DNA of 62,079 nt, counting the filler, from Bipalium vagum (lineage: Eukaryota): assembly GCA_037834085.1 (NCBI GenBank). It is 3 parts of 3 records of this genome, joined end to end, with 100 filler letters (N's around TTAATTAATTAA, not from the genome) between each part and the next. Parts side by side here need not be neighbours in the genome. Positions count along the whole stretch, not along the records: positions 1 to 15,807 come from JBBMKC010144814.1; 2 more parts are not named here. The stretch is one strand, 5' to 3'. Positions 581-56,042 of the stretch are shown piece by piece. Under the pieces are notes generated by a model. The model had not been told where the DNA came from, ran no database searches, and saw nothing but the letters and a program-made list of their open reading frames with translations. Numbering within the stretch: the first letter of the stretch is position 1; each line of letters starts with the position of its first letter. The position numbers were made by a program, and so were the translations under genes.

Positions 581-3500
581 ATGAAAATGTAAATTTTATT
601 GATTATTTTAAAATAAATGATCTTTTTAAAGGGAATTTGATAACTTTAAGAAATATTTGCAAAATGGTGATTTTGAAGGAGTAAAAAGAAATTTTAAAAA
701 ACAGTTCTTGGATGAAATTATTGATAATTTCTATGTTAGTTTAATGATTAATCAATAAATCTATGGGATAAAGTTGAAATGATTCGTTTTCTTTTTATAT
801 TTTAGCACTTTTAAATGTTAATTTCAATAAATACCAACTTCAATTTTTTAAAATATAGTTTTCTCTTCGTAACTTTTCTATTTAAATGAATGAATTTTTA
901 GGGAAAACTATTTTTTCGAATATCAAAATACAGCTTTTTTCACTGTTGATTATTAATGAAAATTATTGATTTTAATTTTTTCAGAAAATGAAACCAATTC
1001 ATCTTGCCTGTGAAAATGGTCATTTTGGAATAGTGAAACTATTAGTAGAAAATAAATGTAATATTGAAAGTGAAGACAAAAATGTAATTATGGTTGAGTG
1101 AAAAAATTAAATTGATATATCTAGAAAAAGAGACCCATTCATTTTGCTTGTGAAATTGGTCACCTTGAAATATTTAAACTCCTGCTGGAACAAAAATGCA
1201 ATGTTGAAAGTGAAGAAAAAACTGTAATTCGTTATATATGTCCCAAGTAAAAGTAAAGACCTTGGTTAATTTAGAAGAGGAGACCGATTCATTATGCATG
1301 TCAATATGGTCATTTTAAGATAGCTAAATTATTAATCCAGAGAAAATGCAATATTGAAAGTGAAGATAAAGATGTAATTAAATATATTTGATTTGAGGGA
1401 AAGTAATGATTTTACATTTTAGAAAATTAGACCTCTTCATTATGCATGCCAATATGGTGATATTGAGATAGTAAAATTATTGATTAACCAAAGGTGCAAT
1501 ATCGAAAGTGAAACTGAAAAAGTCATGATTTATTAACGATTGACTTAAAGCTTAACAATATTTTTTAGAAAAAAAGACCGATTCATTTTGCATGTTGTAA
1601 TGGTCACATTGGAATAGTCAAATTATTGATCCTCCATAAAGTCCAGATTGAAAGTAAAGATGAAGATGTAAATATTTCTCAATGGAAAACAAATATAAAA
1701 TGGATCTACATATTTTAGAGAAGAACACCAATTCATTATGCATGTAAATTTGGTCATTTAGAGATTGTGAAAGTAATGATCGAGAAAAAGATCAATATTG
1801 AAATTGAAGATAAAGATGTAATAAATTATAAGTGATTAAAAAAGTATTGTATTTTGATTGGTTTAGAAAAAGAAACCGATGCATTTTGCATGTGAAGGGG
1901 GTCATTTAGAAATAGTGAATGTATTGATCCAGAATAAAAGTAACATTGAAAGTGAAGAAAAAGATGTAAATAAAAATCAATAATTGGTAAAATTCTGATT
2001 TTTTTAGAAAAAGAAACCTATTCACTTTGCATGTCAATTTGGTTACGTTGAAATAGTGAAATTATTGATTGACCAAAAAGTACATCTTGAAAGTGAAGAT
2101 AAAGACGTAATTTCTTATCGATGTTTTTGAGAGATAAATGATATGATTTTATAGAAAAAGACACCGATTCATTATGCATGTCAATATGGTCACACTGAAA
2201 TAGTGAAATTATTAATTAAACAAAATATTAATATTGAATGTGAAGACAAAGATGTAAGTATGGATTTTTCGTTTATTAAAAAGAATTGAATCTGTTTGAC
2301 TTAGAAAAAGAGACCGATTCATTATTCAAGTCAATATGGTCACATTGAATTAGTAAAACTATTTATACAAAAAAGATGCCAAGTCAAAGTAAAAGATGGA
2401 GTGAGTTATAATATATATTGACGAGATTATAATTATTTCTTGGTTATAAATCTCAACTGTCATAAAATATTTATCTCTTTATTTTATTATAATGCGTGTT
2501 GACTAAAATTTTATATTTTTAAATATAAAAACTGTTTGGCTAATTATTTAGTCCAATAATAAACGTTTTGTTTCAAAATCTACAATAATGAATTAGTATT
2601 TTAGAAATATTTAATTTTAACAAGTCTTTTTCAACGTACACTGTCGGATCCATTGTGAAGTGTTATTAGCTAGCTTTTGTATAACATATTGGTCCAATCT
2701 TCTAAGATAATATTTAAAACGATTAATAAGTTGATCAGTAGCTGCAGCTTTTCGACCCCTTCTATATATTCTTTTTTTTCATAACCCTCTAAAAACCTCC
2801 GAGAATACTTTTTTCTGGAGAATTAGCAGAATTGTCTTTTCTAACATCCTGGACTGTTTTTGAGTAATGTGAGCTGGCCAAGTCAGACCAAAACACGTAT
2901 TCATCTTTGTTCTAATTATTCCTGATATATGGAAGTAAACGATTTGTGATACAATCATTTTTTTTAATAGATTTCCATGTTAATGGACAAATTAATGACT
3001 CGTGAGATGAGACCTTCACGTTATCCAGACCATACTATTTTTCAGATTTTCATTTTCGTCGAAATTATACTCAAACACGGACAGCTAGAATGTTTCTGAT
3101 CTAATATCCATCATTTCCTGACATGGTTGTATTGGTTACATTGAAATAGGATTGGTCATCAAGAATAAACTTTTATTGGAGAACTTTCTATACAATGTAA
3201 TACATTTCCGCTTTGATTAAGAATTTTGGTTTTCAGTTCGTTCAGATATCTTTCTTTTTTTATGATATTTAATTGATGTTTTATTTTTTAATGTTCTGTA
3301 CAAACATGACTTCTAAACATTAAATTATCCTAGCAGTGCAACATAATATCATTACCATCAAAATGGGATGTGATCTGATTTAATTTTGAAAGCCTGATCT
3401 TTTTGGATTTACATCTACTTCCAGTCTCTCTTTCTGATGGTAAGTTATTCTCATATCTTTGTAGAATGAACGTAGCTGCTTGTTTTTGGAAGTTTTCTTG

Positions 3501-6420
3501 AAATAAATGTAAAACATTGTAAATTACTGTAATATCGTTGCTTAATGCTTGAGAATAGTTTCATATTCCTTGAGAATAGTTTCATAGTCCAACAATACCT
3601 GGCACCTCCATATAGAGCTTTAAGAATTTATAAGTACTATAAAAGGAAAAAAAACTGATGTGTTAGACTGGCCAGGAAATTCTCAAGAAGTCAAGACAAT
3701 CGAAAATATTTTGAGATACCTTAAACATGCAATTCCAAAGAACAAGCGTGGAAACAACAAATCTGGTATATTTTGGATAGAAAATATTTTAGCAAAATCT
3801 CGTGGGATCAATGACGATTCGAGTCAAATCTGTTCTCAATATGAAAGAGCATCCCACTAAGTTTTAGAATGCAATTATGGTGAAAATTTGATAAATATTT
3901 CTTGAGTTACTTTCGTTTTTATTTATAAGATATTGATATGAACAAACTTTTGGAGTATGTGGTATTTAAAAATGAATATAAATCTATTGAATTTACAAAC
4001 AGGCCTTGCTTTAAATGACAACTACATTTACCAGTCATCATAACTTATTTTCCTATTACATTATTATGGAATTTTAGAGGACACTTTAGTAATGTTTAGA
4101 TTAAGTTAATAATAATGTTCTGAGAATTTAAAGCTTTAAAAATGTATTCAATTCTTCTGACTAACTTCGCTAATGCTTAATTAACTTTGAAAACCGCATT
4201 TTTAGAGATATCATATTCCTAACATATTCACTGAAATTAGATATTTTAGAATGATAATGTAAGGAATTTTCAACATGGTTTATTTTCTAAATTTTCTCTG
4301 GCTTGGAGAAAAGAGTATTGATAGCTATTTTATTGCATTAATAATTTATTATTTTCTGGTTACTATGAGGATGGTTCAATGATTAAAAAACCAAACTGGT
4401 TTATTCAGAGAACAATGAAATATATAATTATTTATTACTTATAAGTAATGATTTATAATAAAAGTATAATTATTATTACTTAAATCATTAAAATTATTTT
4501 GTTTAAGTTAATTAAATCCCATTAACTGATGACAAATCTATTTTTGAAATATTTGAACAACGTTCAGTGATACATTTTTTACTTGCCAAAGGTGAAAAAC
4601 CATTAGATATTTATACTGGGGTTTCCAAAAAATATGGAAAATGAATCGAAGGAATTGCTAAAAATAGATCGAAAAATTTAAGGACGGGCGAACTTCAGTG
4701 AGCGATGAGTACAGTTGTGGGCGTTCAGCTGAAGTTTCAACCGGAATCTAAAAAAACAAAGCATGGAATGGATGCATTCAAGCCCAACGGTCAAGAAAAA
4801 GTATCGAACCCAATCATCAGCAGGGAAAGTCATGAAGACAATTTTTTGGAAATCAATGAGCCAGGTTTTGTCGGTTTTCTAGAAGTTCAATTGACAATAA
4901 ATAGCACATACTACTGTGACATGCTCATAAACAAAGTGAAGTAAGTAATATTAAAAAATCCTCTGGATATCGACACGGAGGCACCATTTTGTTTCACGAT
5001 AATACAAGGCCTCATACAGCTCAAAAAACTCGAGAAGCCATTGATAAATTACATTGGAGCTATTGCATCATCATGACATGGCTCAACCGGATTTTTATTT
5101 GTTTGGTCCACTCAAGGATTACTTAAGAAGTCAGAAGTTTATTGACAATAATCATACCAAAAAAATGTGCTAAATTATCTCCGAGATCAAGATAATTCAT
5201 ACTTTGCAGCCGGTATAAATAAGCTTATTTACAGATGAGACAAATGTATAAATGTTTGTGGAGATTATATTGAAAAGTAAACACAGTGTCACATTGATTA
5301 AATAAAGAGTTTTATCTCTATATTAATTTATGTCTTTAATTATTGAACCACTCTCGTATTAGGTTTACAATTAAGTACGTGTCTTTTTAATTAAGCAATA
5401 AAAAAACTTGCTTCCAGCCATCTTTCAAATAACGTAGTTATTTAATGTTTGTATAACTCAGAGTGTTTACTAACAAAAGGTGTCTTTGAACGGATTCCTT
5501 GCCAGTGAACACCTTTTTCAAGAAAATCTGTAGCGACGCGAGATGGGATAAACATATCACCAAAAGACCAATAATTGGTTCAGATTAAGATGTATGAAGC
5601 CAGATAGTATCATGTTCCTGTAATGTATTGTAATATGGCTAATTGACAATTAATCATTTGAAGAGATGTGAACAGTTCGAAAAAAGTGATACATTTAAAA
5701 TTCCACCAAACTGTAAGCATGATCTTCTTTGGGTGCAAAGATTTTAATGACTAACTAGGTTGACTTTGAGATTTTACTGACAAAATTGTCTTTGACACCA
5801 TTTTTTTCTAGACTGGTTACCATTTTTTTAATTTTTTACCATTTTGCATCTGAATTTCATATTTTAATATTAATAGTACGTGCCAATAAATTTTTTTCTG
5901 TTAGTGCATGCCTTAACCAAACATTAGGTCGAAAAATAACTCACCGTGTACTTAGATGATTCTCTGCCCATATAAATAGTATCTTTATTATTGCCTTATC
6001 CATGTGGAACAGATTCTGTATGATGATTGGTTGAGGATCACTGTACTCAAGTGGAAATCACATATATCTAAATCTCCCTATCTGAATTTAGCATGTGGGT
6101 TTTGATAGGCACTATGTATATTACATATACTTTTGTCTCCCCGCGATTCTCTTTTATGTTTTAAAATATTACTACTATAATATTTGTGAATAATGTAATA
6201 TTTACTATTTTTAAATGAATATAATAAAACAGGATGAAAAAATATTTCTTCAATAAAGATTTTTTAAAAATTATTTTACACATTTATACATTTTAAGTTG
6301 TCGATAAACATGAAAAATTGTAATTTCTTAGTAATATTACAGGAAGGACGAACTCCTTGTGACTTGGCGAGACTTAAGGGTTACAATGATATTGCCGTAT
6401 TAACACAAACACCCACTGAC
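581..6420 (+). CDS. Multi-exon ankyrin-repeat protein (10 one-repeat exons plus a capping repeat); C-terminus unresolved
   Basis: GT-AG exons: 581-588, 632-734, then 985-1083, 1125-1223, 1275-1373, 1423-1521, 1569-1667, 1719-1817, 1867-1965, 2008-2106, 2155-2253 (each 99 nt), 2305-2400 (96 nt) and 6343-6420 (EGRTPCDLARLKGYNDIAVL). Repeats read like KKRPIHFACEIGHLEIFKLLLEQKCNVESEEKT, matching the ankyrin consensus, with no stops through 6420. Confidence 0.9.
2638..3540 (-). mobile_element. Degenerate Tc1/mariner-superfamily element, ITmD37E-like
   Basis: Minus-strand fragments FILDDQSYF, RLLPYIR, EYVFWSDLASSHYSKTVQD and DNSANSPE recall the FWPDLASxHY...NPPNxP motif of DD37E transposases. Many stops and frameshifts; ends approximate. 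Confidence 0.6.
3590..3890 (+). mobile_element. Tc1-like transposase C-terminal fragment
   Basis: LDWPGNSQEVKTIENI resembles the Tc1 motif WPxNSPDLNPIEN. Confidence 0.6.
4364..5358 (+). mobile_element. Internally deleted mariner element with both TIRs (irritans/Hsmar2-like ends)
   Basis: Left end tatgaggatggttcaatgattaaa; reverse complement of right end tacgagagtggttcaataattaaa. Peptide fragments FEQRSVIHFLLAKGEKP, LFHDNTRPHTA and DFYLFGPLKDYL. Confidence 0.85.
5400..6230 (-). mobile_element. Degenerate mariner element
   Basis: Minus-strand VWLRHALTEK (WVPHEL motif) and LHPKKIML; ends approximate. Confidence 0.6.
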
Positions 6421-7144
6421 GTAATTTTTCTTCATTTATTTTCAATCGAGTGATTTCTTTATTATATAGATGATTTTGTTCCTACAGTGGAAAGAGAAAG
6501 GAATGCTTTAGAAATACAGTCAGGCCTGTCTAGGGGAAACATTACCTTTAAGAGACAAATACTTTAAGGAACAATTTTTAAAAGTTGCGAGTAATACTGT
6601 ATAAATTTGAAATATATAACAAACAGTGAATTTTAGGAACAGTGAACATAATTTGTTTTAACAATACAATACTATTACATTTTTAAAAATTACATTATTA
6701 ATTCTAAATTTTTTAATGAATAAAAGTTCAGAAATTAAAAGGAAAGCCTATTCTGTTAAAAAAAGCTAGAAGTCATTCATTTTTTAAATTCACCACTCAA
6801 AGACAATTAAGCAGCAAATTTAAAATGTTCTTGTAGTCATTTATAAGAAAATGAGAAAATGATTACAAGTCGAAGTAACAGGAATATGAAGAAATTAAGG
6901 ATTTTTTAAAACACAAGAGATTGGTTGCAAGTTGTTACGCCAAAAAACACATTAGTGTAACTGATGATAATGTGACAGTTATGGGTCTTAAATTAGATGA
7001 ATTTTTGGCCGAGAGAAAATCACGAAGTCTTACGATGATTGATTACTTAATTAGGAATTAAAACCGCATTGCTTTTTCATTGGATCAAAAAAAATATAAC
7101 TGTTTCTTATAAATCCATAGCGAACAAGTTCAATTTTGTAAATT

Positions 7145-8600
7145 CTAGTGTTTTTTATGGACAGGTCTGACTAATAATAGAATAAACACTTTTATAATAG
7201 ATTTATTCCATGGAGAAATATTCTTTAATTTAATATAAATATATATTTTAAATAAACACATTTTAGCAATTGAAAACAAAAAATTTTGTAAACATTTATT
7301 ATCATGACACATATTTGGAACTATTATTAGTCCATCGATAGTCATATTTAATGACACATTTTAAATACTTAAATGAGGGGCTAATTTTTAATTTAAATAT
7401 TTTGTGAATTCTGAATGGTCGAAATTATCTTTATTTTGTTTTTTTTAAAATTTTAAAAAAGAAAATGTTTTTTTAAAGTAATATTTGTTATTAACTAAAT
7501 TAACTTCCAAGTTTTAAACTTTTTTAAAAATAATATTTAATTAATCAGAGAACACATTGGTAATCTATTGACTTTTACCTTCTGTTTGAATATTAATTTC
7601 TTTTATTAACAATGATTCGCATATCTTCCATTCATAGTTATTATCAAAGTTATTCATAATTAATCGAAATTCTTCAGCACTAACTTTATTATTTCGCACA
7701 ACCCAATTCAATGAATAATCTAAAACTTTACTGGTTCTGCTTAATTGCGAATATTCACTAATATCTGTTCTGAAGTGACTATCGATTTTTAAATTTTTTA
7801 TATTTTAGCATTGGGCTAAAGTAAAAAAAGCTGTCTTTCAGAAAAGTCGTCATTCGAGTCCAGGATCTACATTAAAGAAAGAAATTTTGTTCCAACATGA
7901 AAAAAAAGTACTTTTATTTTGTTGAATTCTGAATATTGTTAAAATTAATATTAAACATTTACCGAAATTGAATTATTTCGACGGTCATTCAAACTGATCA
8001 TAGAGACTTCAATTAAATATTTCTTTAATATCTCTTCATGATTTTCATCTAGTTAATGATTTGCAAAATTACCACATGTGGAAATCAATGGTAAAAAATT
8101 TAAAAATGTCTTAATATTGTTAATACATTAACCAAGTCCGCTATAATCTGACTCAAAATCTCTATTGACTGTTTTCGCTCACCCCACCAATTCTTCAAGA
8201 ACCAAATAATTTAAGTCTTGAATTTCAGATGTGTTCGAATGTCTACAATCCACTCCGAAAAATCGTTCTATTATTCCTAATGAGTGAATAGTCGTAATAA
8301 GTCAAATAAAAATAATCAAAATTAAATATGAATGAAAAGAAAAATAATCTAATAGGTTTTCCAAAGAATTGAACAATATAATTTAGTTATACAATCCAGA
8401 TATTTTCAAATGACTCAACTTCAAATCAGGTCCTCTTATGGTCTGCTTGGATCATTAAGGTTAGAAAATAACTGACTCGGGAGATTGTTTTATAGGAAAG
8501 TCAAAACATCATCGGACTGATCCGGTCACTTATCGTAAATTTTTTCAATTTCTTCAAAAGACACATAAAAGAAAATCCAACTGGAAGAGAAATAGACAGG
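7145..8600 (-). pseudogene. Unidentified spliced gene relic
   Basis: AG/GT-bounded exon-like blocks at ~8276-8133 (GIIERFFGVDC...YLVLEELVG*), ~8048-7963 (ENHEEILKKYLIEVSMISLNDRRNNSIS) and ~7770-7578 (TDISEYSQL...WKICESLLIKE). In-frame stops present. Confidence 0.4.
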
Positions 8601-9693
8601 AATATATAACAGCTTAAAAGATTCTTTAACGCGGGTTGATGTAAGGATTAAATAGTCAAAGTCAAATAGTAACACATGCATTAAAAGAACTAATTAATTA
8701 AAGAATTTACTATTCAATCAGATAGTAACACAAATTTTGGTATTTAAGCAATAGCGTAGTGAGATAAAGATGACGCAAGTCGATTAAGTTGATTAATAAA
8801 TGTAAGAACATTAATAATAAAAAAAATTCACTATAATAATAATAATTAAAAGAAAAATATAATAAAATAATTGAAAAGCCTCAAGAAAAACACGATAATG
8901 AGTCCTCAGATTGTCAGCCATACCCAAACGATACGCTCAATGGCGGTCATGTGCAAAGGAAACCATTAACAATCTTGTTGCGTGTTTTTTTTATTAATAA
9001 TATGGTACCTATAAATAATAAAAACATGATATATGCAATCTTCCGACGAATAGCTTAGGTTTCTTTTGACAATCTCAAATACTGTTTCTTCTTAAGATTC
9101 AAATACTGATTTCAAAATACTGACGATAGCTTTAAACAAAACGAAAGTTTGTTTTCTCGAAATTATCTCTTCGGTGACTGTATAGTAAACTATTTTTCTT
9201 TAATAGGAGTTTTTCCAACAAGCCGACCAATCCGGTCGTTGGATGTAAAATTGTGGGAAATCATCCCATTAATAATCGAGGATTTCCCCACAAGATTCGA
9301 TAATTTGTAAATGCTATTGAGAGGGAAACATTATTATTAAATTCAGTCCTTAATTATGGACTTTAAAAAATAATTTTCTTTTTATTAATTCGGAGATAAA
9401 TTTATTATTATTTGCACATAATTATATTTATATATAATAATATTAATTATTACCAATTATTTTTTAGAAATGTTTGTTATCATTTTAATATTGTGGTTTC
9501 TATCTCTAATGTGGGACCGTCAGTGACCCAAAATCTTTGGTGCCATTCGTGAACCCAAAAAAATTATCAAAATATTTTGCTATTTATTTCTATACCAAAG
9601 ATGCAAATTTTATTAAGATTGTTTGCAATTTTTTTTCAAAACTATTATTAGAAACCATAGAAACTGTAACTTAAAGAATATTAGTATTTACAG

Positions 9694-12600
9694 ATCCGAG
9701 AAGCCATCATTAATAATGATGAAAAAACTTTTGTTAAGCTCTACCACAATGTTATTTTGTCAATTGAGGACGAAAATGTAAATATAAATTAAATCCGACG
9801 AAAATTATAAATAATCCACATATTAAGTTCAAACAATATTGGCTTGACATGATATTGGACAATAAAGCGGAAAAGATCCTTAAGTTTATTGTAGACAGAC
9901 CAATCGATGATCTTGTAAATTCTGAATATGTTTTGGCTTTTTAGTGATTCGATTTGCAGGAAATTTCATACTTCAAATACTTAATGACAAAAGATCATTA
10001 TAAATCCACAAATATCCAATTATGGCAGGAGGTCATTGAAATTGGGTTGTTGTTGTTATTCAATTCAAATATTTTCAGGTTCTGCTTTACAAATCGATCA
10101 GAGATAATCATCAAGTAGTATTTAAATTGACGTGTTGTCCTAACGTCATTAATGCCGAACGTCAAATTGTAAAACATTATTAGAATGTTCTTTTAAACAA
10201 TTACTGTTCAGATACCATGCTCATTCCTGGAGGTGGCAGCAGAGCACGGTAGATGTGTCTTTGTACATGAAATTTTGTTAAAAAGCATTTTTAAAAATGA
10301 AGTTGGAGATAACTGATATTAAAGAATTGATATTTGTTTTAATGACAATATTTCTTTAGATATGGAAGAGAGCAAAGAGAATCGCTTTGCAGAAAGCTCA
10401 CCATCAAATCTATAGAACAATATTGAATAGGGAATATTTGCTCAGCTACAGAGAGAAAGTACTTTCATATTTCTTGATGAATATAAACCATTTTCAATTT
10501 CATTAAAGGCAAATTTTTCTATTTTGCACACTTCTGTTTGTGATAACGACGCGGACATGATTGAATACATTTTGAATAAAGGCATCGTTGATCCCAATCA
10601 CAATCATGAGGTGAAATAAATTCTTCGAAATCTATTTTTTGTGTTGAATATTTTTTCAGATTTTAGGTACCGCTTTTACATTAGCTATTACATTGTGTCA
10701 CGAAAAATGTATGACTGTGTTAAAAAAATTTAAAGTTAACTGTTATACCCACAATAAAGTAAATCGATCAATATTAATTTGAAATCGAGCTCTGATTGTC
10801 TCTGGTTTAGTATTTGCAAAGTCCACTTCATGAAGCAATTTTAAACGGATATTTGATTGTCGATATTTGATAGATAGTTCATCAAACATTGATGAAACTG
10901 GATTTGTGAGTGCTTTTATAACGATTTTTTTATAACATTCACGAAATAGATGGGTCAGACTGCTCTGCATTGTGCAGTAATGCAAGGATGCGAAGAACTT
11001 TGTGATAAATTGTTGAAAATGGGTGCAGATTGCAATCGATATATGGAGGTTTGGAAAGAAAGAATTGCCTTTTCAGCTATCGTTTTAAATCTATAATTTG
11101 TTAAATTAAAAGTTCGAATGCCAAATATGTTTTAAACTTTTCTTTTTTATAAATTGGATCTGTTAAAGAATTCATTACCATAGAGGTTCCGGGTATTTAA
11201 TTTATACATTATTTCTTCTTATTTTTCACTTGAAATTTAATTTTTTCTAAACCATATAGAACCTGGATTCTTCATTTCATCGATTTCTACTTAAGCATAT
11301 CTAAAATATCTAGAAATTTCTTTTGCGTTTGACCTTTTTAATTTTTAATTACCCGTTATTGTTTTTCGTTTAATAATTTGTGGAATAAATTAATTGCAAA
11401 ATTTTGGTTGGTAATAAAATATTTTAATTGCCATATATATGAAATTTATTTGATGTCCCTTATTTTTTTGATGTTTCAGTTTCTCTGGAATGCTCAGAAA
11501 AAAGGTTTTATAATTTTATTTTTCTCTCAATTACCTACATTTTGAAAAATATAAAATCGATAGAAATTCCAGTTTTTAACAATTCGATTCATCTTTCAAA
11601 ATGGGAGAATTCGTTGACTCTTTGTGCAAAGATGAATAAAACCATTTATCCATGTTTTCTTGAAACAATGGATAAAACAAAAGCAAATAGTTTTGACGGT
11701 GATGGAAATTCCTTGCTTCATTTAATTGTAAAGTTTTTTAATACTGAGGTTTGTGAAGCTTTGATTAAAGCTTCTGGTGATGTTAATTCGGTCAATTTTC
11801 AAGGCAATACTGCCTTATTCGAATTACTGTTCTCTTTAGACCAAAAAACTTTTAATGACGTAATAATAATTATTATTGATATTTTACAAAAAGTTATTGA
11901 TATTTTAGAATGAAGATAAAATTATTGAAATTGTGAATTTATTTGTTCAATTTGGATATGATCTCAAAAGGTGGTGTAAAAAAGATTTGTCAATTTTTGA
12001 AATTTCATCAAAATTTAACTGTGAAAGGTGTTTCATTTTCTTAGTTGATTTTAATTTTTTTGATAATATCTCATTTAACATTGATTGGCAATAATTTTAG
12101 ATTACTACTTAACTTTTTATCACGACCTGAAAATGGGTTATTGGAGATTAATAAAAACCTGTTCAAAACTGCCTTGGAAAAAAACTTTTTCCAGTTTTGT
12201 GAAACTTTATTGGGTTTATATCATAGAGATCAATTACAATCATACATTACTACAGATTTTATCAAAATAAGTCTGAAGCATAATTGCATAAGTCTATTAA
12301 AATCCTTGATCATGAATAGTAGTGATGAGGTACAACAAACTGTTTTAGAAGGCTCTTTGTATGATCTGACAAACCTTAACGCCAGTGATCTGTTTGAATA
12401 TTTGCTCAATATTGAGATAAAAGATCCAAAGCGTTTTGGAAATGGTGAAACGCTATTAACAAAATTGTTGAATGAACAAAAACTTGGTTTTTGTCAAAAG
12501 ATCATTGAATCGAAGAAAAATAAAAATATATATATCAATTTAAATAACAGAAAAAATCAAACTCCATTACAAGTTGCTATTGAGAAAGACCTCATGGAAA

Positions 12601-13175
12601 TAGCACAGTTTTTAATATTTGAAACTAACAATTTAGATAATGAAGACTGTGATGGCCAAACTGCCTTAATGCAGTTGTTTTTGAAAATATCAAACACTAT
12701 TCATGTACGTAAAATGTTTCTATGAAATAGTCGTTTAAGTATTGTTTAGAAACATCAATATACGGTATTTCTAAGCGCAATCAAAGCTCTAATCCTCAGA
12801 GGAGGAAACATTTATCATCAGACAACGAAAAGAGAGCAGATCATACAATTTTGCTCTTCACTTCAAACGAGAAACGAAATCGAAATATTATACAAAGATG
12901 AACAAGAGAAGTTCTCCAATTGCGTAACAGAAAAGATTATTGGAAAGGAAAATATTGTTGTAGTAAAAGAAATTATTGAAATAAAAAATGTATGAGATCT
13001 CATTTTATCACTTTACCTAATCTTGATTCAGATTTGTCAAATCTGCTTCGATAGAGAAATCAATTGTTCATTAAAATGTGGCCATACCATTTGTGAAGTT
13101 TGTGGACAAGATATTGTACGATGCCCATTCTGCAATTTTGAACCAGTTATGATTCAGAAAATTTATTTAGGCTAA
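9694..13175 (+). CDS. Ankyrin-repeat protein with C-terminal C3HC4 RING finger (putative E3 ligase); start not resolved
   Basis: Short phase-0 exons with ankyrin motifs (QSPLHEAILNG; GQTALHCAVMQG at 10950-11048; GNSLLHL; GNTALFE; QTPLQVAIEK; GQTALMQ). Last exon 13032-13175 reads ICQICFDREINCSLKCGHTICEVCGQDIVRCPFCNFEPVMIQKIYLG*. Splicing at 11049-11560 not fully resolved. Confidence 0.8.
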
Positions 13176-14569
13176 AAGTTTTATTCGTTTTTTTAATCAC
13201 TTATCATTGTTGCCATCTTTTAAAAAGATTAATTTTTTATTTATTTTCTCTTTTATTTTCTGAATAGAGAATATCGTATTCCCATTTTTATTTACGGATT
13301 TTAAATATGAAGATTATGTTACAAGGTGAGTCTTGGTAAAAATTCTTTTGAGAGAATAACAACGTTACTTTTAATATCTGATCAATTTTCATAGATTTTT
13401 CAATTGTATAAATTGGTATTGATTTGTAGTTTCTGTAAATATTTTGTAATGAATTAATTGATGAATTTTCATAATATTTTTCGATATATACTTCAAATAA
13501 AAAATTAACTCAAACTTAACATTTTGTAGACTAGACTTTGATTATCACCTAATATTTAAATTTTTGTTTGAAACAGTTAAGGAAATTTTATATTATAAAA
13601 ATCAATAAAAAATAAGATTCACTTTAAAAAATGATAAAAATGAAATTAAAACATGAGAAAAAGAAAAAGATTTTTCATAAAATAAAAAAATAAATTATAT
13701 TGGTTTATTTTGATTTAATCTTGATTATTTAATTATTGATTATTTTATTTATCGATTTAATTTAATTATCATAAAATTAATTTATGGAAACATGACAATT
13801 GTATTCTTGTTACTGATTTAAAAAGTGAAGAAAATAGAAATTTTTTCATACATATTTGAATTGTTTTCTTTTGAGTGTTACATTTGTTACAAAGTTTTAT
13901 GAATAGTGATGTGCTTGGGTTTGAAAAATTAAAATCCTTGTTAAGGATTAAATAATGAGGACAATAATTGTAATAATAAGAATATTAAAATAATGCTAAT
14001 GATAGCCTAAGGTAATACAATGTTAAATGTGTTCTTTCTTAAATTTAAAATGATTGTCTTTATATTTTCCTTTTGTTATTTTTAATTTGGTTATTAAATT
14101 ATTATTTACCTTATTGACATTGGCTATTTGAATAATAGTGTTGAGTAATATTTGGGCTTTTGTGTGGAGAATTGTGATATATTTTAGAGCAGAAAGTTGT
14201 GATCAGTGTAGATTTGATCATTTTTGTTGAGTTGCTTATCGATTACATAAAAATATTTGTACTTTAGGATTGTATAATTTAATTATTAATAATGCTAATT
14301 TTGAATAAAAACTATTTTTGCTCTAAGCTTATTAGTAAAGACTTTGTTGAAAAATGACTAACTTATTTATTTGTTTAAATTGTTGCATTTTTAATATCAA
14401 TCGATAAATAAAGTAAAATCAAGATGCGGCTAATGTGCTAAAAATAAGTCACTTAGAAAGTTTAAATTAGAACTTTTTTATAAAAATTGGTTAAATAAAG
14501 TAAATGTGAAATTATTTTGTTAGATCTAAAAATACATTTGACAAGGAGGAGATAAATTTCTTGATGCAA

Positions 14570-16791: not shown

Positions 16792-19700
16792 TCACTTGAC
16801 TTGGCTCCGAAGCTCGTTTCGTTCTTCAGTCAATTCGGTCGTTTTGTGTTCCCAGTAGTTTTTCATGTCAACCACTTGGTTTTCAAGTTTCGCGATCAGC
16901 TCAGATTTATCCTTCCATTTCTGATTGATCTGCCTAAAGAAAACATATGGAAAATTCGCGATCAGAGAAAATCATGTCACTTTTATGTCACCGATTGATT
17001 TATTTCAATCTTAACAATTTTGAATTTTAATATTAAAAATCTATAAATAATTTTATCAATAATCAATAACCGATATTCAACCAATAACACAATATAAGAT
17101 CATTAATATTGAAAATAAAATCAATATTTAAGATCAATTTAAGTATTGCATGGAAGTTGTTTGAACACAAAAAATTTTAAAATAATAATGAATTTTTAAA
17201 AAATTAATTTAATTATAAAAAAAATAATTAAATTAAATAATAAAATAATATTTAATTTAATAAAAATAAATAATTAAAATTGATAGAATTAACTTTTAAA
17301 TTCCATTTCTAATAACACCGGACTAAAAAAATCATTAACAATAAAATACTTTTTTAATTTTTTAAAAGGATTTATTGATAAATATTGTAAAGAATTAACT
17401 TTCTAAACAACTGCAGTATGATTTTAAAGGGAAATTTTCATGAGATATAAATAATCAATATTACAAATTCGAAATTATTAAATTAAGCAGAGTACAGAGA
17501 AAGAGTTTAAATAAAATTAACATAAATCTAAAAAATAAAGTTGAAAATTGCATAAAAAATAATGACAATTGATTTAAGTAAATTATTAATTTATTAGTAT
17601 TTTATTTATTTTTTATTATTACTATTATTTATAAACGTGCTTATTAGAAAATATTTCGTAAATACTTTTGAGTGGCTTCTGATTCTTCAAGTTTGTCTTG
17701 TAATTCAACTATTATGTCTTTCAGCTCCTCTTTTCTCTTTGTGAGCTTATTGATCAAATCCTAGACATTAAACGTATTCGTAGCAGAAATTATGAACCAG
17801 TACAAATAATCAATACTTTTAATTCTGAATTTTCATTTAAAATATTTTTGATTTGATTTTCCATTTGCTTGGAATCTTCCAATATTTTTTCTACAAAAGC
17901 TTTCGATTCAAGATCCTTTTCAGTCAGACCCTATTTTCAGATGACAATAGAGATCAAATTAACTTCCTAGAATTCTTTTGTTAACACATTACCTCTTTTA
18001 TTTTCATAATGCTTGCCGTCTGATCTTCGATAATTTTCGATTTTACTTTTACGGTCTCTGCAGATTTCTGTAAGAAAGGATTGATTAAAATGAGACAACA
18101 GTTCAATTGGTGATGATCACCTCAATTTCTAATTTTAGACAGTTGATTTCTGAAGCTTGTGCCTCAATTTTGCACTCTAATTTCGATCGATCCTGAGTCA
18201 GTAAATAACCTATTTGAAAATCAGTTTTGAGTGAACTGAAGACAAATTTTCTAGTCACCTTGTTGAGCAAGTTCTTCACTCCATAGCTTTCTTTCTGTTC
18301 TAAGTCCTTCTATTATAGATTCTTGAGCAGACAATTTTGCTTGAATCTTTTTATTTTCCTGTGACATCAAAACAACATGAATGATAAACTTAATATAGGC
18401 ATGAAATATAAATTATAACAAAAATTCAACTCTAATAATAACGTAATTGTACAAATATCAATTCACATACTTCCTACAATGGAAATTAAAAAAACAAAGT
18501 AAAATTAATGATAATAATAACAACAACAACAATAATAATAATAATAACTCAGATGATTTTTATGTTTATGGGATGGATTGTGCTTGATTCAAGATTATTT
18601 GAATCAGTTATGAGTGGTACATCTCATTTATATCGAAATTTTTTGGCATCTAAAATTAGCAAACCACTTTTGACATGTTCTTTTTCATAATGCACCAACT
18701 ACTTTCATATTACGCTTTCTTTTTTATACATATCTCCAATGTAATATAACATTTGTAAATAATAAATAACGTGATTGAAAAATATGAGCAAAATGTACAA
18801 TTTATCGTCTGTGGTGCTAACTGAATTTCAGCATGAGAGATGTTCTCCAAAAGTATTAGTATATTTTAAAGATTGAAAGTAAAAATTCCAGAGTCACGGA
18901 ATACCTTTAACCAGTTTCTTTGTGAACACTCTACGGGAATCATATTCAGTTAGACATTATTTTTAACCAAAAACAGAGCACAATATATTTTACAGTGAAT
19001 ATTAAAATCATCACATTGGTAAAGAAGAAAGGTCACCTGTTTTGTTAATTCAAACTGCAGCATTTGTTTACGAGCCTCCTCAAGATGAGCTTCCAAAGTT
19101 AAAATTCTTTCCTAAATCAATAAACTCTGTCAAAAAAATTAAGAACAAACGTATTTTAACTTTATTGTTTCTGTTTGTTTCCTGTTTGTTTTTGCTCAAG
19201 TCAATAAGCTTGCTTTTTTGGTCCTTCGCAACCTGGCGGAAAATGAAGAATTTAATATTATTGGATCAGCACTGTTGTAGAATAATACCGTGGTTAACTC
19301 AGTTATCAAAGATTTTGATTCCTCATCTTTCTTGGCTAAAATTTCAAGTTTAGTTTTGATCGAATTACATTCGGAAACCACTTGCAGGTATGCACTTTCC
19401 AGCTGGAATTAAAAAAGAAAAAATTTCGATGTTTATAAAAATATATTTTATTAATATCACTATAATAAATAATAACAATAGTAATAATAGTGATAGTTAG
19501 TGAATATATAAATAATAATTTTTTAAAAATCAATAAATATCTTTAACATAAAACAACAACAAAACATAAAACCAATAATAATAATAATAATACAAAAATA
19601 ATAATGATAATATTATTTTTATTAATAAAAATATAAAAGCAATTTCGTTAAAAAGTTCTGTTTGACATGATTTCTTGTAAAAACATGAACGACAAATTTT

Positions 19701-22700
19701 GTAGGTCCTTAGTCTAACTCCCAAAAAACACTAAGTATGTTCATGTATATTACTTTGTATATTTCTGGCATAAGAAACATAAATTTGGTTTCCATGTATT
19801 TCAAACGATCAAAGTTATTCCACATACCTTTTTGTATCGATCTGCTTCCATGTGCAGAGCAAGCCGGAATTCATTTTCAAGATCTTTGTATTGATTATTT
19901 GATTCAGATATTCTAAAAAATTATTTCGATTAATTAACTTCCCACTACTTTTTGACATTTTTTTAATAATATTTTTAAGAACCTGGCAGTGGACACATTT
20001 TATTCAAATGAAAATTTTATGTAAATAAATAATAATAAAACCAATATTAGAGTAGTATTAAATTTAAATATAATGCCGTCTACCAAAACTAAAATTATAT
20101 TTAAGAATTTTATATATTATATATTATATAAGTTATATTTATTTTATTTTATAATAAAAATAACATTAACAAATGACAAAAATTCGACATAAAAAAAATT
20201 TTACGATAGATTTTAATAATGAAAGTTCTTACAGATGATTTTAGTATTATACAGAACAATTTCAAAATTATAAAGATCAATTTCAAAATCAAAATTTTCT
20301 TATCATATAAATAATTGATGATAATTATCATTATAATTTTAGTTCCACGAATAATCGGTAAAAACAAATTACTCTAACGGAGGTACTTTTAAGCAACATA
20401 AAACGTTGGTTGGAATTGAATAAAGATGTAGAATTTATCAAAGAATTAACGACTGTTTCTGAATTCAGCATTTACAAAAATATAAAAGAAAATGAAGAAA
20501 ATGATACTGATATCAAAAGATTAAAACCGAGAAGTAAAAATAAAATCTAAATATCGTCAAAATACTCAACTTCATATCCAAAGACTATTTTTAACACAAA
20601 TAGGTGTTCAAGAAAAGCTTTTGATGAAATATGCACCAACACCTATTCTATTTTTGTTATTTAAAGAAAGTAATTTAAAAAGGAAAGGACAAAAGAAAAA
20701 ATCTTCTATTCCCTTATCTGAAAACCATCAAGATGAAAAACGCGAAAATGTCTCAAATATTTTGGGTAAAAAACAAAAATAATATTTTTAAATGAGATAA
20801 CCAATTATGGTTATCCAAAGATTAATGAGAGTTCAACTCTTTCAAAAAAGGAAATCTCGGACAAAATATTTCAGTATGCGCAATGATGGACTCTATGAGA
20901 ATATGACATTAAACATGAGTGACGGTGCTTTAAATGAAGAAAGTTTTAAAATTTTATTATTGAAAGTTGGAATAATGGAAGTTTTGACTTTCATCCAATG
21001 TTGATAATGGACAATGTCCACTTCCATCACTGTAATTCAAATAAAAACTTATTTAACAAATGAGACATTATATATTGGTATTTGCTAAAATATATTCCAA
21101 CACAGAAATCGATCGAAGAGGTTTTATCCGTGATCAAAGGAAACATAAGTGCAATTCGTCCTGTTGTAATCAACAGAGAATCTTTAAAAGAAAATATGAC
21201 TGAGGTCTCAAACGCACTTGTGGATTGTAGCATTAATTTCTGTAATTTTTTAAAGAAAATGTTGGAATTTTGTTATAATGTAATGTAATGAAGTTAATAA
21301 TTAAATATTGATTTTTCTAAATATTTTTAATAAAGCCTTTAATTATGACTTCAAATTGTAAAAAAACAATTAAATTTATTGATACAAGTTTGAATTTGGT
21401 CTTTATAATACCACAATCTTCTGTCTTTAAGGAATTTTATTATAGTTGAAGTAATCAATAAAGAAATTGAAAATAATCAGTGTCCATTCCAATTGATCTA
21501 AATAAAACCCAATAAATGTTGATTTGATAAAATAATTGTTTAATATATAATTATAAATAAATTTTTGTACAATATCAAATCAAAATTCCACCAAAAATAT
21601 TTACAAAATAAGAATGATATTTAATAATATTGACAATAATTCACAATATCTTATTAATAAATTAGAATTTTAAAAAATATATTTCTTTTAATAAGAAGTT
21701 GGTTGAAAGCCTCATTTTGGTAAAAATGTTGAAACAAAATTGTCAGTCCATTCAAATTTGAAATAAATAAATTATTTATTTATTTATAAACCTTAAAATT
21801 TAAAAACACGAGTTTATAAACTAATTTTCATTAAAAAATTGAAAATTATTTTTATTTCATTACCTTAAAATTACTATTTTACTCTTTTTTGAAAGTAGAG
21901 TATCTTTAAGAAATTATGATTTATACTTTTAAAAATACAAAAATACTTGACAGACGCATGAAGAGATTTATGGGTTGAGTGTACCTTTGACAAAGGTGGT
22001 AAATGGTTTGGATGTATTGTATTTATTGAATGTAACTTAGTTAAAATAAAATATTTATCAAGGTTTTTTTAAATAAATCAAGAACAATAAAAATCTTATT
22101 TTAAAAATCTAATATTACTCTTATCATTCAAAACTTATTAATTTACTGAAAACCTTTCACTGAAAAAAAAATTAAATTTATTCCTGGGCAGCGCTAAGTT
22201 TATACACTGACAAAGTTAAGGCTAAGACAGTACTTGACTTTCCAGGCATTGATCTCGTGATAGGACTCAGTCTTGGCTGCATTAATTTGTTTTTCTATAT
22301 AGTCTTTCAATTCCTGACTATCAAGTGCGTATCGATTCAGTAGACAAGTCCTAAAATCAATTCAATCCATTTCAACAGATATTCTAACTTCTTTACTGGT
22401 ATTCCTTTTCTCTTTTACTCATAATCGACTGTAAATCTTCCACTTGACTTTCCAAATTAGAACAGTGCTTCTTAATAGACGTAATATTCGATTCAGCCGC
22501 TTTCTGAACTGATTTGCATTGTTCTAAATCTTTATTCATCTGAAACAAACAAATAACATAAAGATAAAAAGTAATATTGAGAATTTCCAGGTTATTTTTT
22601 TCAGATTTCCTATCAATTTAGATAAATTAATTTTTTATTAAATCGATATGTCAAAATTCTTTAAGTATTTTCAGTCTTCTTAGGTAGAATAAAATTGAAA

Positions 22701-23012
22701 TACCTTTTATTTTATTATTATTTTTTACCAATAACTATTAATATCCATTATAAGTACTTAATGTAATTGATAGATCGGTTGATTAATAATATTGATAACA
22801 ATAAAACATCTTTCAAACAAAGATCTACCAAACTTTCTTTGAATAAAAGTAATATTTATTTTATTAATTTTTATTATTATTTAATGATTATTTTTTATTA
22901 ATCTATTATTTCTATTATTGATTGATAATTTATGAAATTCATCAAATATATAATAGAATAATAAATAGAAATTATATAATTTTAAATATCTTTATAAATA
23001 GTTTTATTATTA

Positions 23013-23056
<44 letters not shown>

Positions 23057-26000
23057 TTATTATTGTTGTTATTAATTTTATTTTTTTTATCATTTTTATT
23101 GTCATTATTGATAATTATTAGTGATTGTGTTAATATTAATAATTATTTTTACTATCTTTTTTTCTGTATAAAAAATACTATTTAATAAGTCTATTTAAAA
23201 AATAAAATAAAAAATCAACAATTAATGGTCAAATCAATTAATTTGATTAATTACTAAATTTCAGATCGCTGTTAACATTCTGTATCCAAGTTTTATTAAA
23301 GCAGATTATGGAAATTAATGTTTACTGGAAAAATATCAAAATAACCCACTTTCTCAAGTTCCTCGGACTTTGCGTTAATTATTTTTTCTTTAAGGTCCAA
23401 TTTCTTTTGATAATCTATTCCCTGTGACTCCATATTAACTTTAAGTTCCGCTAGAGAAGTTTCCTTTTCGTTAATACGACCCTAATCCATTTAATCGACA
23501 TTTTATAACAGAAAAGAAAGCCTTATACCTGTAAATCGGAAACTTTTTGTTCCAAGTCCTGACGACTGGATTTCTCTTTCGAAAAAGCCTCAACCAGCAT
23601 TTCTGTAGACTTCAAAGCATCGGTTTTACTTTTCTTATCGTTGATCATCATCAATTGAATCTCTTTGTATTTATTTACAACGATTTGCAATTTGTTTTCC
23701 ACTTCTACACGCTTCTGTCTTTCCAAATCTAATTCTTTCAATAAGCCTGCAATTTTTAAATCAGAGTTTTCCACTGTTTTTCCTCTGGCCGTCACACTTT
23801 TTCCGTCTTTATGATCATTCTTTCCGTTTCCACAATACTTGTCCGTATGGAATTTTGGTAAATTTTCCAAACCAACAGTCTCATCAAGATTTTTGTTCAA
23901 CAATGAAACCATTTTATTTTCCAATTCTTGTATGCGCATTTTTAATTCTGACTGATTATCATTATCGTTTTTATTCACTGTCTCTTTTTCTATTGAACGT
24001 GATTTTTGTGGCTCTTTTGCCAACTTGTTTATTTGTTGATATTTTGTCATCGGTTTTGGAGTCTCGTGGTGCTGAATTTCTGAATGGTAATCGGTAGAGC
24101 TGGACAGATATTCCAAAAAATGTTCTAAGCCAGGTATATCGGACAGGATATTCATTTTTATTGGTCGACCTTCTCTGTCCTTACCATCGAGTATTTGTAA
24201 ATTATGCAAGCTCGAAAAGATCTTTTTTCGATAATCTAAATGAATTTCATGTGTGGTTTAGAGAATGAAAAAAATATCTGAATATTTTTTGGTTTTTAAT
24301 TGTCTAAAAAAGTACCAAAAATTTGAAAAAATTAATACCGATTCACAAAAGAAAATGGAATAAAAGTACGTTCAAATTTATTTATGTCGGTGCATAAGTA
24401 ATGTTTTTTTAATAATGTATAATAACAATTAATAAATTGCTTAAACATATCAAAACCATTTATTTTTTGGCGATTTGATGAAGTAAATTAAATGCCTAAA
24501 TATTTTTCGATTAATTTGAAGAATATGTATGAAATCTGTAGAAATGAAAGACTAAGTGTCAAATGAAGATTCCAAACGACATTGAATTGAATGTACGAAT
24601 TTAATCATGGTAAAACGGCTACAAGGTCAATTAACCAAAAATAATCAGATGCTGTTGATGTCAGAAAAATGTTAGAGATCATTTTCCAAACTCAAAATCG
24701 AAAATGTTGATTTAACAGACACTCTTGATCTGGCACATCTCAGGTTGTAGATAATAAAAGTAGACAGATATCAATTCAAAAAAACATTGGTTCGAATTAT
24801 TTCACAAGTAAAAGTTAACAGGGAAACAATTCGACAACATTTAAAGGAAATTTGTAAAGTAATCAAAGCAGAACTCCTTATGAACTTATCAATGGCATAA
24901 AAAGAATCGTATGATAGATTGTGACAAAACAACAACTCAAATCTTAAAAAACAATGTCTTTCATCTTTTCGAAGACCTACAATCATTGCAAAACCAAATA
25001 TTTATGAGAAAAGGTAACAGTGATTGTCTGATCGTTCTCTAGAAGGTATTTTGCATATCGAAAAAATAGCTGCGAATTGGTATTGTGCTCAGTTTGACAA
25101 ATTAAAAGGTAAAATGGATAATGCACGACCGCATACTACACACGACACACTCCAGAAGATTACCGACTTTGGTTGGGAAATTTTAGCTCATCCAGCTTAC
25201 AGTCCGGAAACTACTACTATCTGCTCAGGACAAAGCAACATTTTTTGATCGGATAAAAGTTCATTTTTTATAAAGTTTGAATATTGCATTTTAAAATATT
25301 CTGAATTCCAAATTCAGTACTACAAATGGTTAATGAAAACAAAACCACCAACAGAAGTCTTGAGAACGATGAGATCGTTGATATTTTGTAGACAAACAGA
25401 TTTTTGATTGACGGGAGCCCGAACCGTTCCGCTAAACATTGAACCAAATTTTTATAAGTGATGATGATATCAAAATGAGACAAAAAAATCAATGATATCC
25501 AAAGATAATAATTGGCTCGGAGATGCAACTAAAAATCTCATGGCCAGACAAATATGATAAGTCTCAGAAAAAAATTGTTTTATTTTACTCATTTGTTTAG
25601 GATTTTTTTATATGCAAATACTGATAAAACAAACAACACCAAGTGGCGGAAAAACATCCATAAAAAAGATTTTATCCTGAAAATATTATTATTGTAACTA
25701 TGACCTTTATTTTCAAAATTGGATAGCTTAAGAGCTTTCAAAGAATCACAACTCAGGTGTCTAAATAGGTGAAGGATCATTTTAAAAAAAATGAAAATTA
25801 CGATAAACCACCAGAAGTTAAAAATGAACTGAATTTACTATTTTGTTGAAATAGCTAATGAAAAAACCAATGATATCCGAAGGGATTTTAAATATTCTTC
25901 GAGCAGGAAACACTCAATTTCTATTCACAAATGAAATTCATTTTCTGTTATATATGAGAAAAAGAGAATAGCCAACATTGATGGAGAATATTTGATTGAT

Positions 26001-26999
26001 TAATATTCAAAAAACCAAAAAAAACGTAAATCGCTTTTTCATTTATTTCATATAAAATTGAAAAAAATATTACCCATAAAAATTCAATATTATAATTACA
26101 AATTCTTATACTCCATATTTATTTTATAGATTAATTAATATTTTATTAATTTACTTTTAAGAAAGTATTAGTCTCAAAATTATTTTGAAATATTTTAGAA
26201 TAAATTTTACAATCTTTATAAGAGTACCTTTCAGAAAATTCATAAAATTACAATGAAACTTTAAAAATTTAGCACCCTTTCAAATTGACCTCATTTTAAC
26301 TTTACTACATTTTTTGATAACGAAATAAAATTCTAAAGTCCTTCGATATAAAGCCTTTCTCTGAAAGTTTTGATTAATTTTCGTTCCACCGATCTCTAGT
26401 TAAACTCATCTAATATTAACAAAAATAAACCTGGAGTCTTGCACACTGGATTCGAAGACGTATTGTCACTCAAACATAACTGACGGAGGTTAGCTAAATC
26501 TTGGCAGCTTTTGATGATATGTGTCACTAATCGAACTTGATTTCCTTCTAACTCGACAACAGTCAGCGGATGATTGCGAATATCGATAAATTCAGACAAA
26601 CCAGAAATGTCCGTTATTTCATTATACGATACATTCAATTTAATTAACTGTCTAAATAAAAAAAAATAAATCACCACAATGGTTTCATTAATGAAAAGAT
26701 ATTTACCGCAGTTGTGAAATATTTTCAATTTTCTTTAAGCGATTGGCAGATAAATTCAAAGTTCGTAAAAATTTCAAAGAATCAAGCCCAGATATTTTAG
26801 TTATAATATTAGAAGATAAATCAAGATGTCTTAAATTAACCAAATGATCCAATCCTTTAATATTCACAATCCTATTGTAATGAAGATTTAATGTGGTAAT
26901 GTTCGATTTTAAATTTAGATTTGAAATATCTTTAATTCCAAAATCAATATAGTTTTCCTCTAGTACATTTTCTGATTCAGAGTCTCCAGATGATATCAT
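16792..26999 (-). CDS. LRRCC1: Leucine-rich repeat and coiled-coil centriolar protein (LRRCC1/VFL1 orthologue); 3' end possibly incomplete
   Basis: Exon 1 (26999-26707) has SDS22-type LRRs (LRHLDLSSNIITKISGLDSLKFLRTLNLSANRL), then an LRR cap (NPVCKTPG...YRKKIFSSLHNLQILDGKD) and coiled-coil exons. The last visible exon, INQKWKDKSELIAKLENQV...EERNEL, matches the LRRCC1 C-terminal region as I recall it. Confidence 0.85.
20380..21290 (+). mobile_element. Degenerate IS630/Tc1-family transposase in LRRCC1 intron
   Basis: LIMDNVHFHH and LKYIPTQKSIEEVLSVIK resemble the DD34E motif MDN...YLPPYSPxLNPIEE; frameshifted. Confidence 0.6.
23013..23055. repeat. (TTA)n microsatellite
   Basis: Direct reading; explains the spurious poly-Leu ORF 22922-23185. 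Confidence 0.9.
24380..25260 (+). mobile_element. Degenerate mariner in LRRCC1 intron
   Basis: TIR-like tatgtcggtgcataagtaat; MDNARPHT...GWEILAHPAYSPE. Confidence 0.75.
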
Positions 27000-38797: not shown

Positions 38798-39228
38798 TTT
38801 TTTATCCTTTCATAATTTGTTATACATCTACGCATAATTCAAATCATTTATTTTTAAGGAATAATGCCAAATAAAGAATCTAACTTTTCATTGGAAGAAA
38901 TGAAGTTTTGTTTCTTTATATGTTGATTATAATAATATAAAATTATATACACAACTTCTAACTTTCTATTGGGCAAAATCTAACTGATAAAACTGATATT
39001 AAATATATTAAAACCTTTCACTGGCCTTGAGCCAACAATTAAAATCGGTTTTAATGTATAAAATATTTTTTATAATTTTCTTTTACGTATTTATTGGTTT
39101 ATAAGTGATTTACGAATTTATTTACTATTATTTAATTAAAATCATTATTAAGCTTAATACATTCTAAACCTATTGTTAATTTTATTTGACTGAGTTTGTT
39201 TAAATATTAAAAAAAGTTTCTTTTTGAA
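38798..39228. promoter_or_regulatory. Probable bidirectional promoter region
   Basis: Only 431 bp separate the divergent ATGs of the SOCS and PPR genes. Confidence 0.5.
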
Positions 39229-55800: not shown

Positions 55801-56042
55801 TTGCTCGAATTGGCAAAAGTGACGACAAACAATCTCTAGCAGCTTTTAGAGGACAATTAAAATCGACTGGACAGAATAAATTTGCTCTTGAAGAAAAGGA
55901 AGAAGCTCATGTAATTATATATCATTCTCATTTTAAACAATAGCATCTTTAGGGAAATAAACCTGACTGGAGAGAGCATTTAAAGGCTTCTAAGGAAGGA
56001 GGAGAAGAAGGTGATGCGCAGCCAGTTGCAGCTGAATCCTAA
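52812..56042 (+). CDS. TnI: Troponin I, lophotrochozoan type with charged N-terminal extension
   Basis: Spliced core KKKGLGGLSPEKKKLLKQLIMQKAAEEMK...ALCKKLHENISRLEGEKYDWEVKIRNQEFDINELTVKVNDIKGKFVKPVLKKVNKTESKL...KFALEEKEE...KPDWREHLK. ATG at 52812, TAA at 56040-56042. Confidence 0.93.

Follow-up and report, generated by a model that had tools for sequence, protein, structure and literature searches.

We propose that an array of ten short ankyrin exons in Bipalium vagum, found within a stretch of 62,079 nucleotides (hereafter the window), is the N-terminal ligand-binding module of an intracellular ankyrin sensor that belongs to a multi-copy family. The predicted plan of this family comprises an N-cap, four to ten R-P-I-H repeats each carried on its own phase-0 exon, a C-cap and an effector that may be a TIR, kinase or RING domain. 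Judged jointly, as a single explanation, we consider this fairly probable, and we infer an immune function for the family. A first-pass annotation of the same DNA had read the array as a diversifying, possibly immune, binder assembled from exon cassettes. That idea appears to fit the family, through duplication, homogenisation and selection, and not the copy in the window.

The array consists of nine 99-nt exons and one 96-nt exon, all bounded as AG-exon-GT, in phase 0 and free of stops, with introns of 41, 51, 49, 47, 51, 49, 42, 48 and 51 nt from R1 to R10 and a tandem period of 148 (TRF, score 478), exactly as had been annotated (Table 1). Each exon holds one ankyrin repeat and begins at consensus position 4, and nine of the ten exceed the Pfam Ank cut-off (PF00023, 21.1 bits), R10 scoring 21.0. 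In an nhmmer search of both strands of the 62 kb window, a DNA profile built from R1-R9 matched all ten exons at E ≤ 1e-12 and gave no further match below E 0.6 on either strand. The residue pair singled out as variable, here called xx, reads EN, EI, QY, QY, CN, KF, EG, QF, QY and QY from R1 to R10, as reported, with Q-Y/F in five of the ten. A profile alignment sets it against the variable pair of a DARPin and, together with the positions given in the available part of PMC4308713, upholds its placement on the concave positions randomised in DARPins. The framework is indeed that of ankyrin repeats but is looser than had been described, since column 2 is M, K, R or I, column 7 is once L and the last repeat has YSS. 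Likewise, xx is variable, but columns 14, 22 and 23 (column entropy 2.17, 2.37 and 2.12) vary as much as xx itself (1.69 and 2.12). As for the basic K-K-R/K-P-I-H said to replace the usual G-x-T-P-L-H, the K-K is special to the window array, but R-P-I-H is common to the family, in which relatives have G-x-R-P-I-H.

Table 1. Features of the ankyrin array and of the gene model that surrounds it, in positions of the window
Feature	Position	Strand	Basis or remark
Predicted first coding exon, ATG, 8 nt, then 43-nt phase-2 intron	581-588	+	Predicted from sequence and splice sites
N-cap exon, motif NGDFEGVKRNF..FLDE, phase-0 end, then 250-nt intron	632-734	+	Homologue matches
R1-R9	985-1083, 1125-1223, 1275-1373, 1423-1521, 1569-1667, 1719-1817, 1867-1965, 2008-2106, 2155-2253	+	99 nt each
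R10, final array exon	2305-2400	+	96 nt
3.9-kb intron with high-copy sequence	2401-6342	+	High contig depth, bins 3438-5607 of run X1
C-cap exon, GRTPCDLA motif	6343-6420	+	Register with R10; equivalent caps in L003 and L021
Middle region, six phase-0 exons	9694-9777, 9828-9914, 9960-10031, 10079-10168, 10212-10301, 10360-10458	+	Common to ANK-TIR proteins P0250 and P0262
Older ankyrin or ankyrin-like exons	10509-10610, 10660-10758, 10811-10905, 10950-11048	+	Begin at consensus position 3
Degenerate ankyrin repeats and linker	11443-12989	+	Pfam Ank_2; exon borders partly resolved
Final exon, C3HC4 RING finger and stop	13032-13175	+	PF13920, 27.8 bits (cut-off 27)

The array seems to form the front, N-terminal part of a much longer gene, whose modelled splice sites look canonical throughout. 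From 581 to 10758 the model, which joins 6420 to 9694 and continues through eight phase-0 exons, is open over 633 codons. The N-cap exon found its top matches among 262 proteins in P0262 (E 0.001) and P0250, and among 87 loci it also matched L019, L002, L001 and L003, while R10 and the C-cap exon share a 33-residue register. The middle region is 35% identical to P0250 over 164 aa (E 2e-22), and its only strong matches among 379 proteins were P0250 and P0262, the next, an unrelated one, being at E 0.001; in a wider search just two of 1389 candidates matched, P0250 itself and P0262. A single gene is supported by these matches of the middle region and by the post-array part of the model, which is 31% identical to P0250 over 229 aa (E 1.7e-26). 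A shorter gene ending near 6470 was considered and dropped, the join from 6420 to 9694 fitting both P0250 and the border of the cap exon in L021. The high-copy sequence in the intron that follows the array is probably made of transposon remnants; two ORFs of this intron were searched against Pfam and gave no match. Two stretches at 7344-7777 and 8212-8645, with contig depths of 13,400 and 770 in sequencing run X1, appear to be short high-copy repeats within the intron that separates the C-cap from the middle region.

Further downstream, Pfam Ank matched one of the older exons (10950-11048), matched 10509-10610 weakly and gave no match on 10660-10758. The exon at 10811-10905 is 95 nt long, with a shifted frame and a stop 19 codons in. 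An X1 contig across 7733-13400 is identical to the window, frameshifted exon included, but X1 may be the source of the window, in which case its support for the frameshift is not independent. The neighbours of this exon are in phase 0, so skipping it would preserve the frame. At least one junction within 11443-12989 is probably in phase 2. The final exon has all eight zinc ligands in C3HC4 spacing and is 39% identical to the RING of the ANK-RING protein P0032 (E 7.5e-11). Since exon borders between 11049 and 12100 are only partly resolved, we infer, rather than trace, that this RING belongs to the same gene as the array, with the frameshifted exon lying in between. Among the window exons scanned with Pfam, none had a NACHT, NB-ARC or ROC-COR domain.

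Elsewhere in the window, where GC content ranges from 22 to 37%, a multi-exon troponin I-like gene with short introns lies at 52811-56040 on the plus strand (Pfam Troponin E 1.5e-4, below cut-off; no usable match for the troponin exon in ESM Atlas). On the minus strand there are a SOCS-family gene at 36094-38809 (SH2 exon 37727-37948, SOCS box 36094-36477), zinc transporter exons at 61083-61709 (ZT_dimer), and LRR exons near 26.4-27.0 kb with coiled-coil-like ORFs down to about 19 kb, the whole of 19006-27002 being possibly one LRR/coiled-coil gene. Pfam also recognised DDE/mariner-like, Tc5 and reverse-transcriptase remnants at 33023-33403, 45420-45959 and 60245-60520. Such gene content, with short introns and transposon remnants, is that of an animal; a troponin I motif would suit a spiralian invertebrate, and the troponin gene is a useful marker of its placement.

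The effector part of the proposed plan comes from homologous proteins. Among 261 proteins, the closest single-repeat matches were P0032, P0022, P0250 and P0095. According to Pfam, P0250 and P0262 combine ankyrin repeats with TIR_2, P0032 with a RING and P0095 with a kinase, and P0369, whose N-cap is similar, contains a kinase fragment below cut-off; no NACHT, NB-ARC or ROC-COR was found in these five proteins. P0032 and P0095 are assigned to the family by repeat type alone. The two ANK-TIR proteins are encoded on intronless contigs of 2.1-2.2 kb and have retained three repeat pairs in matching order; concave omega in these two transcripts was 1.19, not above 1. In a tree of 59 repeats the family proteins cluster with the window repeats at a UFBoot of only 76, so that monophyly from the repeats alone is weak; N-cap, middle region and exon layout provide the stronger ties. 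When the whole library was searched with the repeat profile, long generic ankyrin proteins prevailed among the matches, and in ESM Atlas P0250 met generic ankyrin clusters only.

A separate set of R/K-P-I-H ankyrin proteins (P0081, P0347, P0375, P0022 and P0096), some with a U-box in front, was not counted in the family: these proteins matched neither the N-cap nor the middle region, and a tree with weak support separated them from the family. This set presumably resembles giant-virus proteins. Seven loci lie on viral contigs, at 34-58% identity, and transfer from viruses is not supported. Another locus (L036:62-973), with the same dataset prefix as P0250, has an N-cap-like start, a short ankyrin array and a further C-terminal region, which is possibly another effector type; a death-fold tail was considered for it, and Pfam gave no tail domain.

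Tails of this kind bear on what the binders would recognise. Effectors of the TIR, kinase and RING types are characteristic of defence signalling inside the cell, and their presence in the family speaks against diversifying binders aimed at non-microbial targets, that is, at transposon proteins, at allorecognition factors or, should the animal be parasitic, at the proteins of its host. Such targets would suit a window rich in transposon remnants (Pfam matches to Tc5, DDE and RT), and selection on a binding face does not by itself identify what is bound. Nevertheless, the model opens directly with the N-cap and no leader was seen in the sequence, and we consider non-microbial targets quite unlikely.

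The preferred reading of a sensor family also requires several copies, and the family character assumed in the first-pass annotation is borne out by foreign array contigs and introns in X1. At 80% likeness, the summed depth of X1 contigs reached 180-260 across 1268-2569 and 55-79 across 9514-10381 and 12118-13400, compared with 17-26 for the window's own long contigs; contig depth in this run is not a copy number. At 1493, 14 contigs differed from the window, and at 1921 seven did. The window's own exons explain at most three of the former and two of the latter, so that no fewer than 11 contigs are foreign at one exon position. Among the 15 of 248 joints listed, some bear foreign intron letters and foreign codons around xx, and two more, at 10614 and 10850, hint that other loci have relatives of the downstream exons as well. 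Two of the foreign intron stretches were searched for in the window and are absent from it. These differing contigs and foreign introns point to several other, non-identical arrays, divergent alleles or a second organism being less likely as their origin. Single X1 contigs with a depth of about 20 differ from the window at 1096 and 1521-1544, inside array introns, and we read these differences as a second allele or a close paralogue.

Four of the 87 loci (L003, L005, L019 and L021) are genomic and share the window's exon layout and intron site; all are metagenome sequences with one dataset prefix and 27-33% GC. Their 99-nt exons start at position 4 and their introns measure 45-48 nt, with one of 61. 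An N-cap exon was found in L003 and L019. The final array exon is 96 nt long in L003, L005 and L021, as in the window, and in the first and last of these three a C-cap exon follows it. L003 has six repeats and L021 four, compared with ten in the window. We had considered the position-4 intron as a slip unique to the window gene, which was rejected given the identical site in these relatives.

A signal of selection on the binding face was found in these four relatives. The concave set comprised seven codons: exon columns 32, 33, 2, 7, 10 and 30, which are ankyrin positions 2, 3, 5, 10, 13 and 33, and column 11 (position 14), taken from the DARPin alignment. It was drawn from design sources but fixed after the relatives' sequences had been seen. 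Across 12 complete internal exons, which represent four arrays of one dataset at most and exclude first, last and cut exons, omega was 13.75 on the concave codons versus 0.81 elsewhere (2dlnL 36), values inflated by few synonymous changes, multi-base codon changes, recombining repeats, possible assembly chimaeras and the small sample. Concave omega fell to 12.95 when the hairpin-tip codons were removed; L003 by itself gave 25 and the other three loci 7.7. Omega on convex codons was 0.52, and the concave excess was robust to star trees and data splitting. Similarly, pN was 0.38 on the concave set versus 0.057 elsewhere, and amino acids varied in 22 of 28 concave cells and 19 of 104 others. Intron divergence was just 1.1% in L003 and 4.9% in L005, and the exons of these loci are 80-95% alike at the nucleotide level, in short-read assemblies that may be chimaeric among near-identical repeats. 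Whichever omega model is used, introns that are nearly identical stand beside contact codons that have changed. The young arrays of these relatives thus appear to change their target-contact residues rapidly, in the manner of immune receptors.

The array in the window itself has a different history. Its repeats are on average 58% identical in amino acids, and its exons are 62-81% identical at the nucleotide level with no near-identical pair. With dS of about 0.76 and dN of 0.26, the array is apparently under purifying selection overall; its exon tree is star-like. Its introns resemble one another more closely than do 13 control introns, likewise short and from the same gene (22 of 20,000 label permutations); these controls were added because similarity against shuffles alone was deemed insufficient. 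Each exon was thus copied with its intron, and the divergence of the units puts this far back in time, which bears out the earlier proposal of duplication. In R1-R9 (R10 excluded), omega was 0.34 on the concave set (below 1, p 0.0002), 0.18 elsewhere, 0.44 on convex codons and 0.73 at xx (p 0.41, not different from 1). A dN/dS analysis of the kind suggested in the first-pass annotation therefore gave a divided answer on the diversifying binder: concave omega rises above 1 in the young relatives, but in the window copy the concave face is under purifying selection and xx is not above 1. We also compared the array with 14 others, chosen by internal identity from 28 with six or more repeats. Its hairpin positions were less variable than in all 14 and its convex positions more variable than in 13, and three of the 14 reached its variability at xx. 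A conserved hairpin together with a variable convex face argues that this copy has no hypervariable binding face, and it looks like an older member that has settled and is possibly damaged.

Several of these properties are what would be expected of an ordinary ankyrin scaffold or RING-ligase adaptor with a fixed partner, whose repeats grew in tandem by neutral processes with the exon geometry usual for ankyrin genes. Purifying selection across the window array, the recurrence of Q-Y/F at xx and the conserved hairpin would all fit, and the older ankyrin exons of the gene likewise hold one repeat each. Ankyrin genes of vertebrates also contain 99-nt exons, a point that our literature search did not return. 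We nevertheless hold the fixed-partner scaffold to be unlikely, as it is at odds with the multiple copies in X1, and with the swapping of effectors and the concave-specific omega in relatives of equal exon layout.

Rearrangement is suggested in the relatives. In L005:101-640, exon 4 agrees fully with exon 2 in its 5' part, as does the intron before it with the intron before exon 2, which suggests that a two-exon block was duplicated; the 3' block of exon 4 matches L019, making this exon a mosaic. L005 and L019 may be the two ends of one array. Mosaic exons of this kind, the phase-0 junctions throughout the array and the 10 of 12 listed X1 array joints that depart from the window exon order would be in keeping with a per-cell generator of diversity, in which repeats are skipped or cassettes moved in a targeted manner between loci, as proposed for the ROCO genes of Ectocarpus. 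However, best-match order is unreliable on a star-like exon tree, the mosaic partner L019 may be part of the same array as L005, the window holds no near-identical repeat pair and the splice sites look canonical. Moreover, spare, non-coding or inverted repeat exons were absent from both strands of the 62 kb window (nhmmer), and the exon shuffling of Ectocarpus type that had been suggested is not supported for the window copy. We regard such a generator as very unlikely.

For the sensor family that we favour, the following mechanism can be outlined. Ankyrin repeats stack into a curved solenoid. Its helix-1 and hairpin residues would form the target groove; the AlphaFold model of P0250 has a pLDDT of mostly 79-97 at residues 91-340, so that its array is modelled at high confidence, and below 50 from residue 349 on. 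The effector would come into play once the groove has captured a foreign or damage-related protein; in the window gene, the RING would act as an E3 that ubiquitinates the bound target or relays a signal. In the germ line, exon-plus-intron units of 144-150 bp may mispair, and unequal crossing-over and gene conversion would alter the number of repeats and homogenise introns and framework while leaving the frame intact. Changes at contact codons would then be fixed by selection, the pattern seen in the relatives. In the window copy, such exchange probably ceased long ago, as would befit an older member. As a consequence of its frameshift, this copy might produce a 652-aa protein without the RING, skip the phase-0 exon, or be decaying. 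A bolder version, which we put forward only tentatively and as the less probable, is that of 'natural DARPin' immune receptors of animals that lack a NOD domain. Their exon cassettes would be actively copied and reassorted within and between loci, selected at the contact residues, possibly skipped per transcript and mounted on interchangeable TIR, kinase and RING domains, with the window gene as an aged copy among no fewer than 12 arrays in its genome.

The proposed family is analogous to two known systems in its working and would be a member of neither. In the available parts of the reports on the ROCO (LRR) and NB-ARC-TPR genes of Ectocarpus and other brown algae, one repeat is encoded per exon (Zambounis et al. 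2012, PMC3341825; Teng et al. 2024, PMC11378527). As in those genes, the family has one repeat per equal-sized exon, an N-terminal sensor, a signalling tail, multiple copies including damaged ones, and positive selection on the concave face, which is here seen in the relatives and not in the window array. In contrast to what is described there, the repeats are ankyrin rather than LRR or TPR, the organism is an animal, no ROC-COR or NB-ARC was seen, the window is without non-coding or inverted spare exons, and the introns are just 41-51 nt long. In fungal NLRs with highly conserved ankyrin repeats, such as Podospora Pa_3_8560 and Pa_2_8180, the part of the report available describes concerted evolution, variation in repeat number, positive selection on inner helices and hairpin, and interchangeable effectors (Dyrka et al. 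2014, PMC4986451). L003 and L005, with their highly similar exons, resemble these arrays and approach at the DNA level the fungal criterion for high internal conservation (85% over 100 aa), whereas the window repeats fall far below it. Unlike the fungal NLRs as described, the family has no NACHT or NB-ARC, its repeats are N-terminal and its effectors C-terminal, and each exon is copied with its intron.

Our literature search, in which most subscription journals lay outside coverage, returned no ankyrin family with one repeat per exon and TIR, kinase or RING tails, and the portion of PMC5094078 available mentions ankyrin only for NF-kB; the multi-copy cassette family is apparently undescribed. 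The value of the finding rests with the family, that of the window copy alone being modest. Functionally, the window gene can also be likened to a wider class. In nematode F-box and MATH-BTB proteins and vertebrate TRIM proteins, a ligase module is joined to a fast-evolving substrate binder and action against foreign proteins has been proposed; the folds differ, and the likeness is one of function only.

Diversifying repeat receptors are known with LRR or TPR exons from brown algae and with ankyrin repeats from fungal NLRs. If our explanation is true, small invertebrates would have a third version, made of ankyrin exon cassettes with TIR, kinase and ubiquitin-ligase outputs and no NOD domain, and a testable candidate for specific intracellular recognition would be at hand in little-studied animals. 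The closest parallel in design is with engineered binders. In designed ankyrin repeats, positions 2, 3, 5, 10, 13 and 33 were randomised and lie on the concave face, according to the part of PMC4308713 available. Like the DARPin and ANK-N5C libraries described there, the family combines an N-cap, internal repeats and a C-cap, and in the young arrays variation falls on the codons that were randomised in the libraries (2, 3, 5, 10 and 13, with 14 and 33 varying less). The family differs from these libraries in being natural, in its fusion to effectors, in its R-P-I-H and cysteine-rich framework and in its additional variation at position 1. It would thus offer a natural counterpart of DARPin libraries, in which the positions chosen by selection can be compared with those chosen by engineers.
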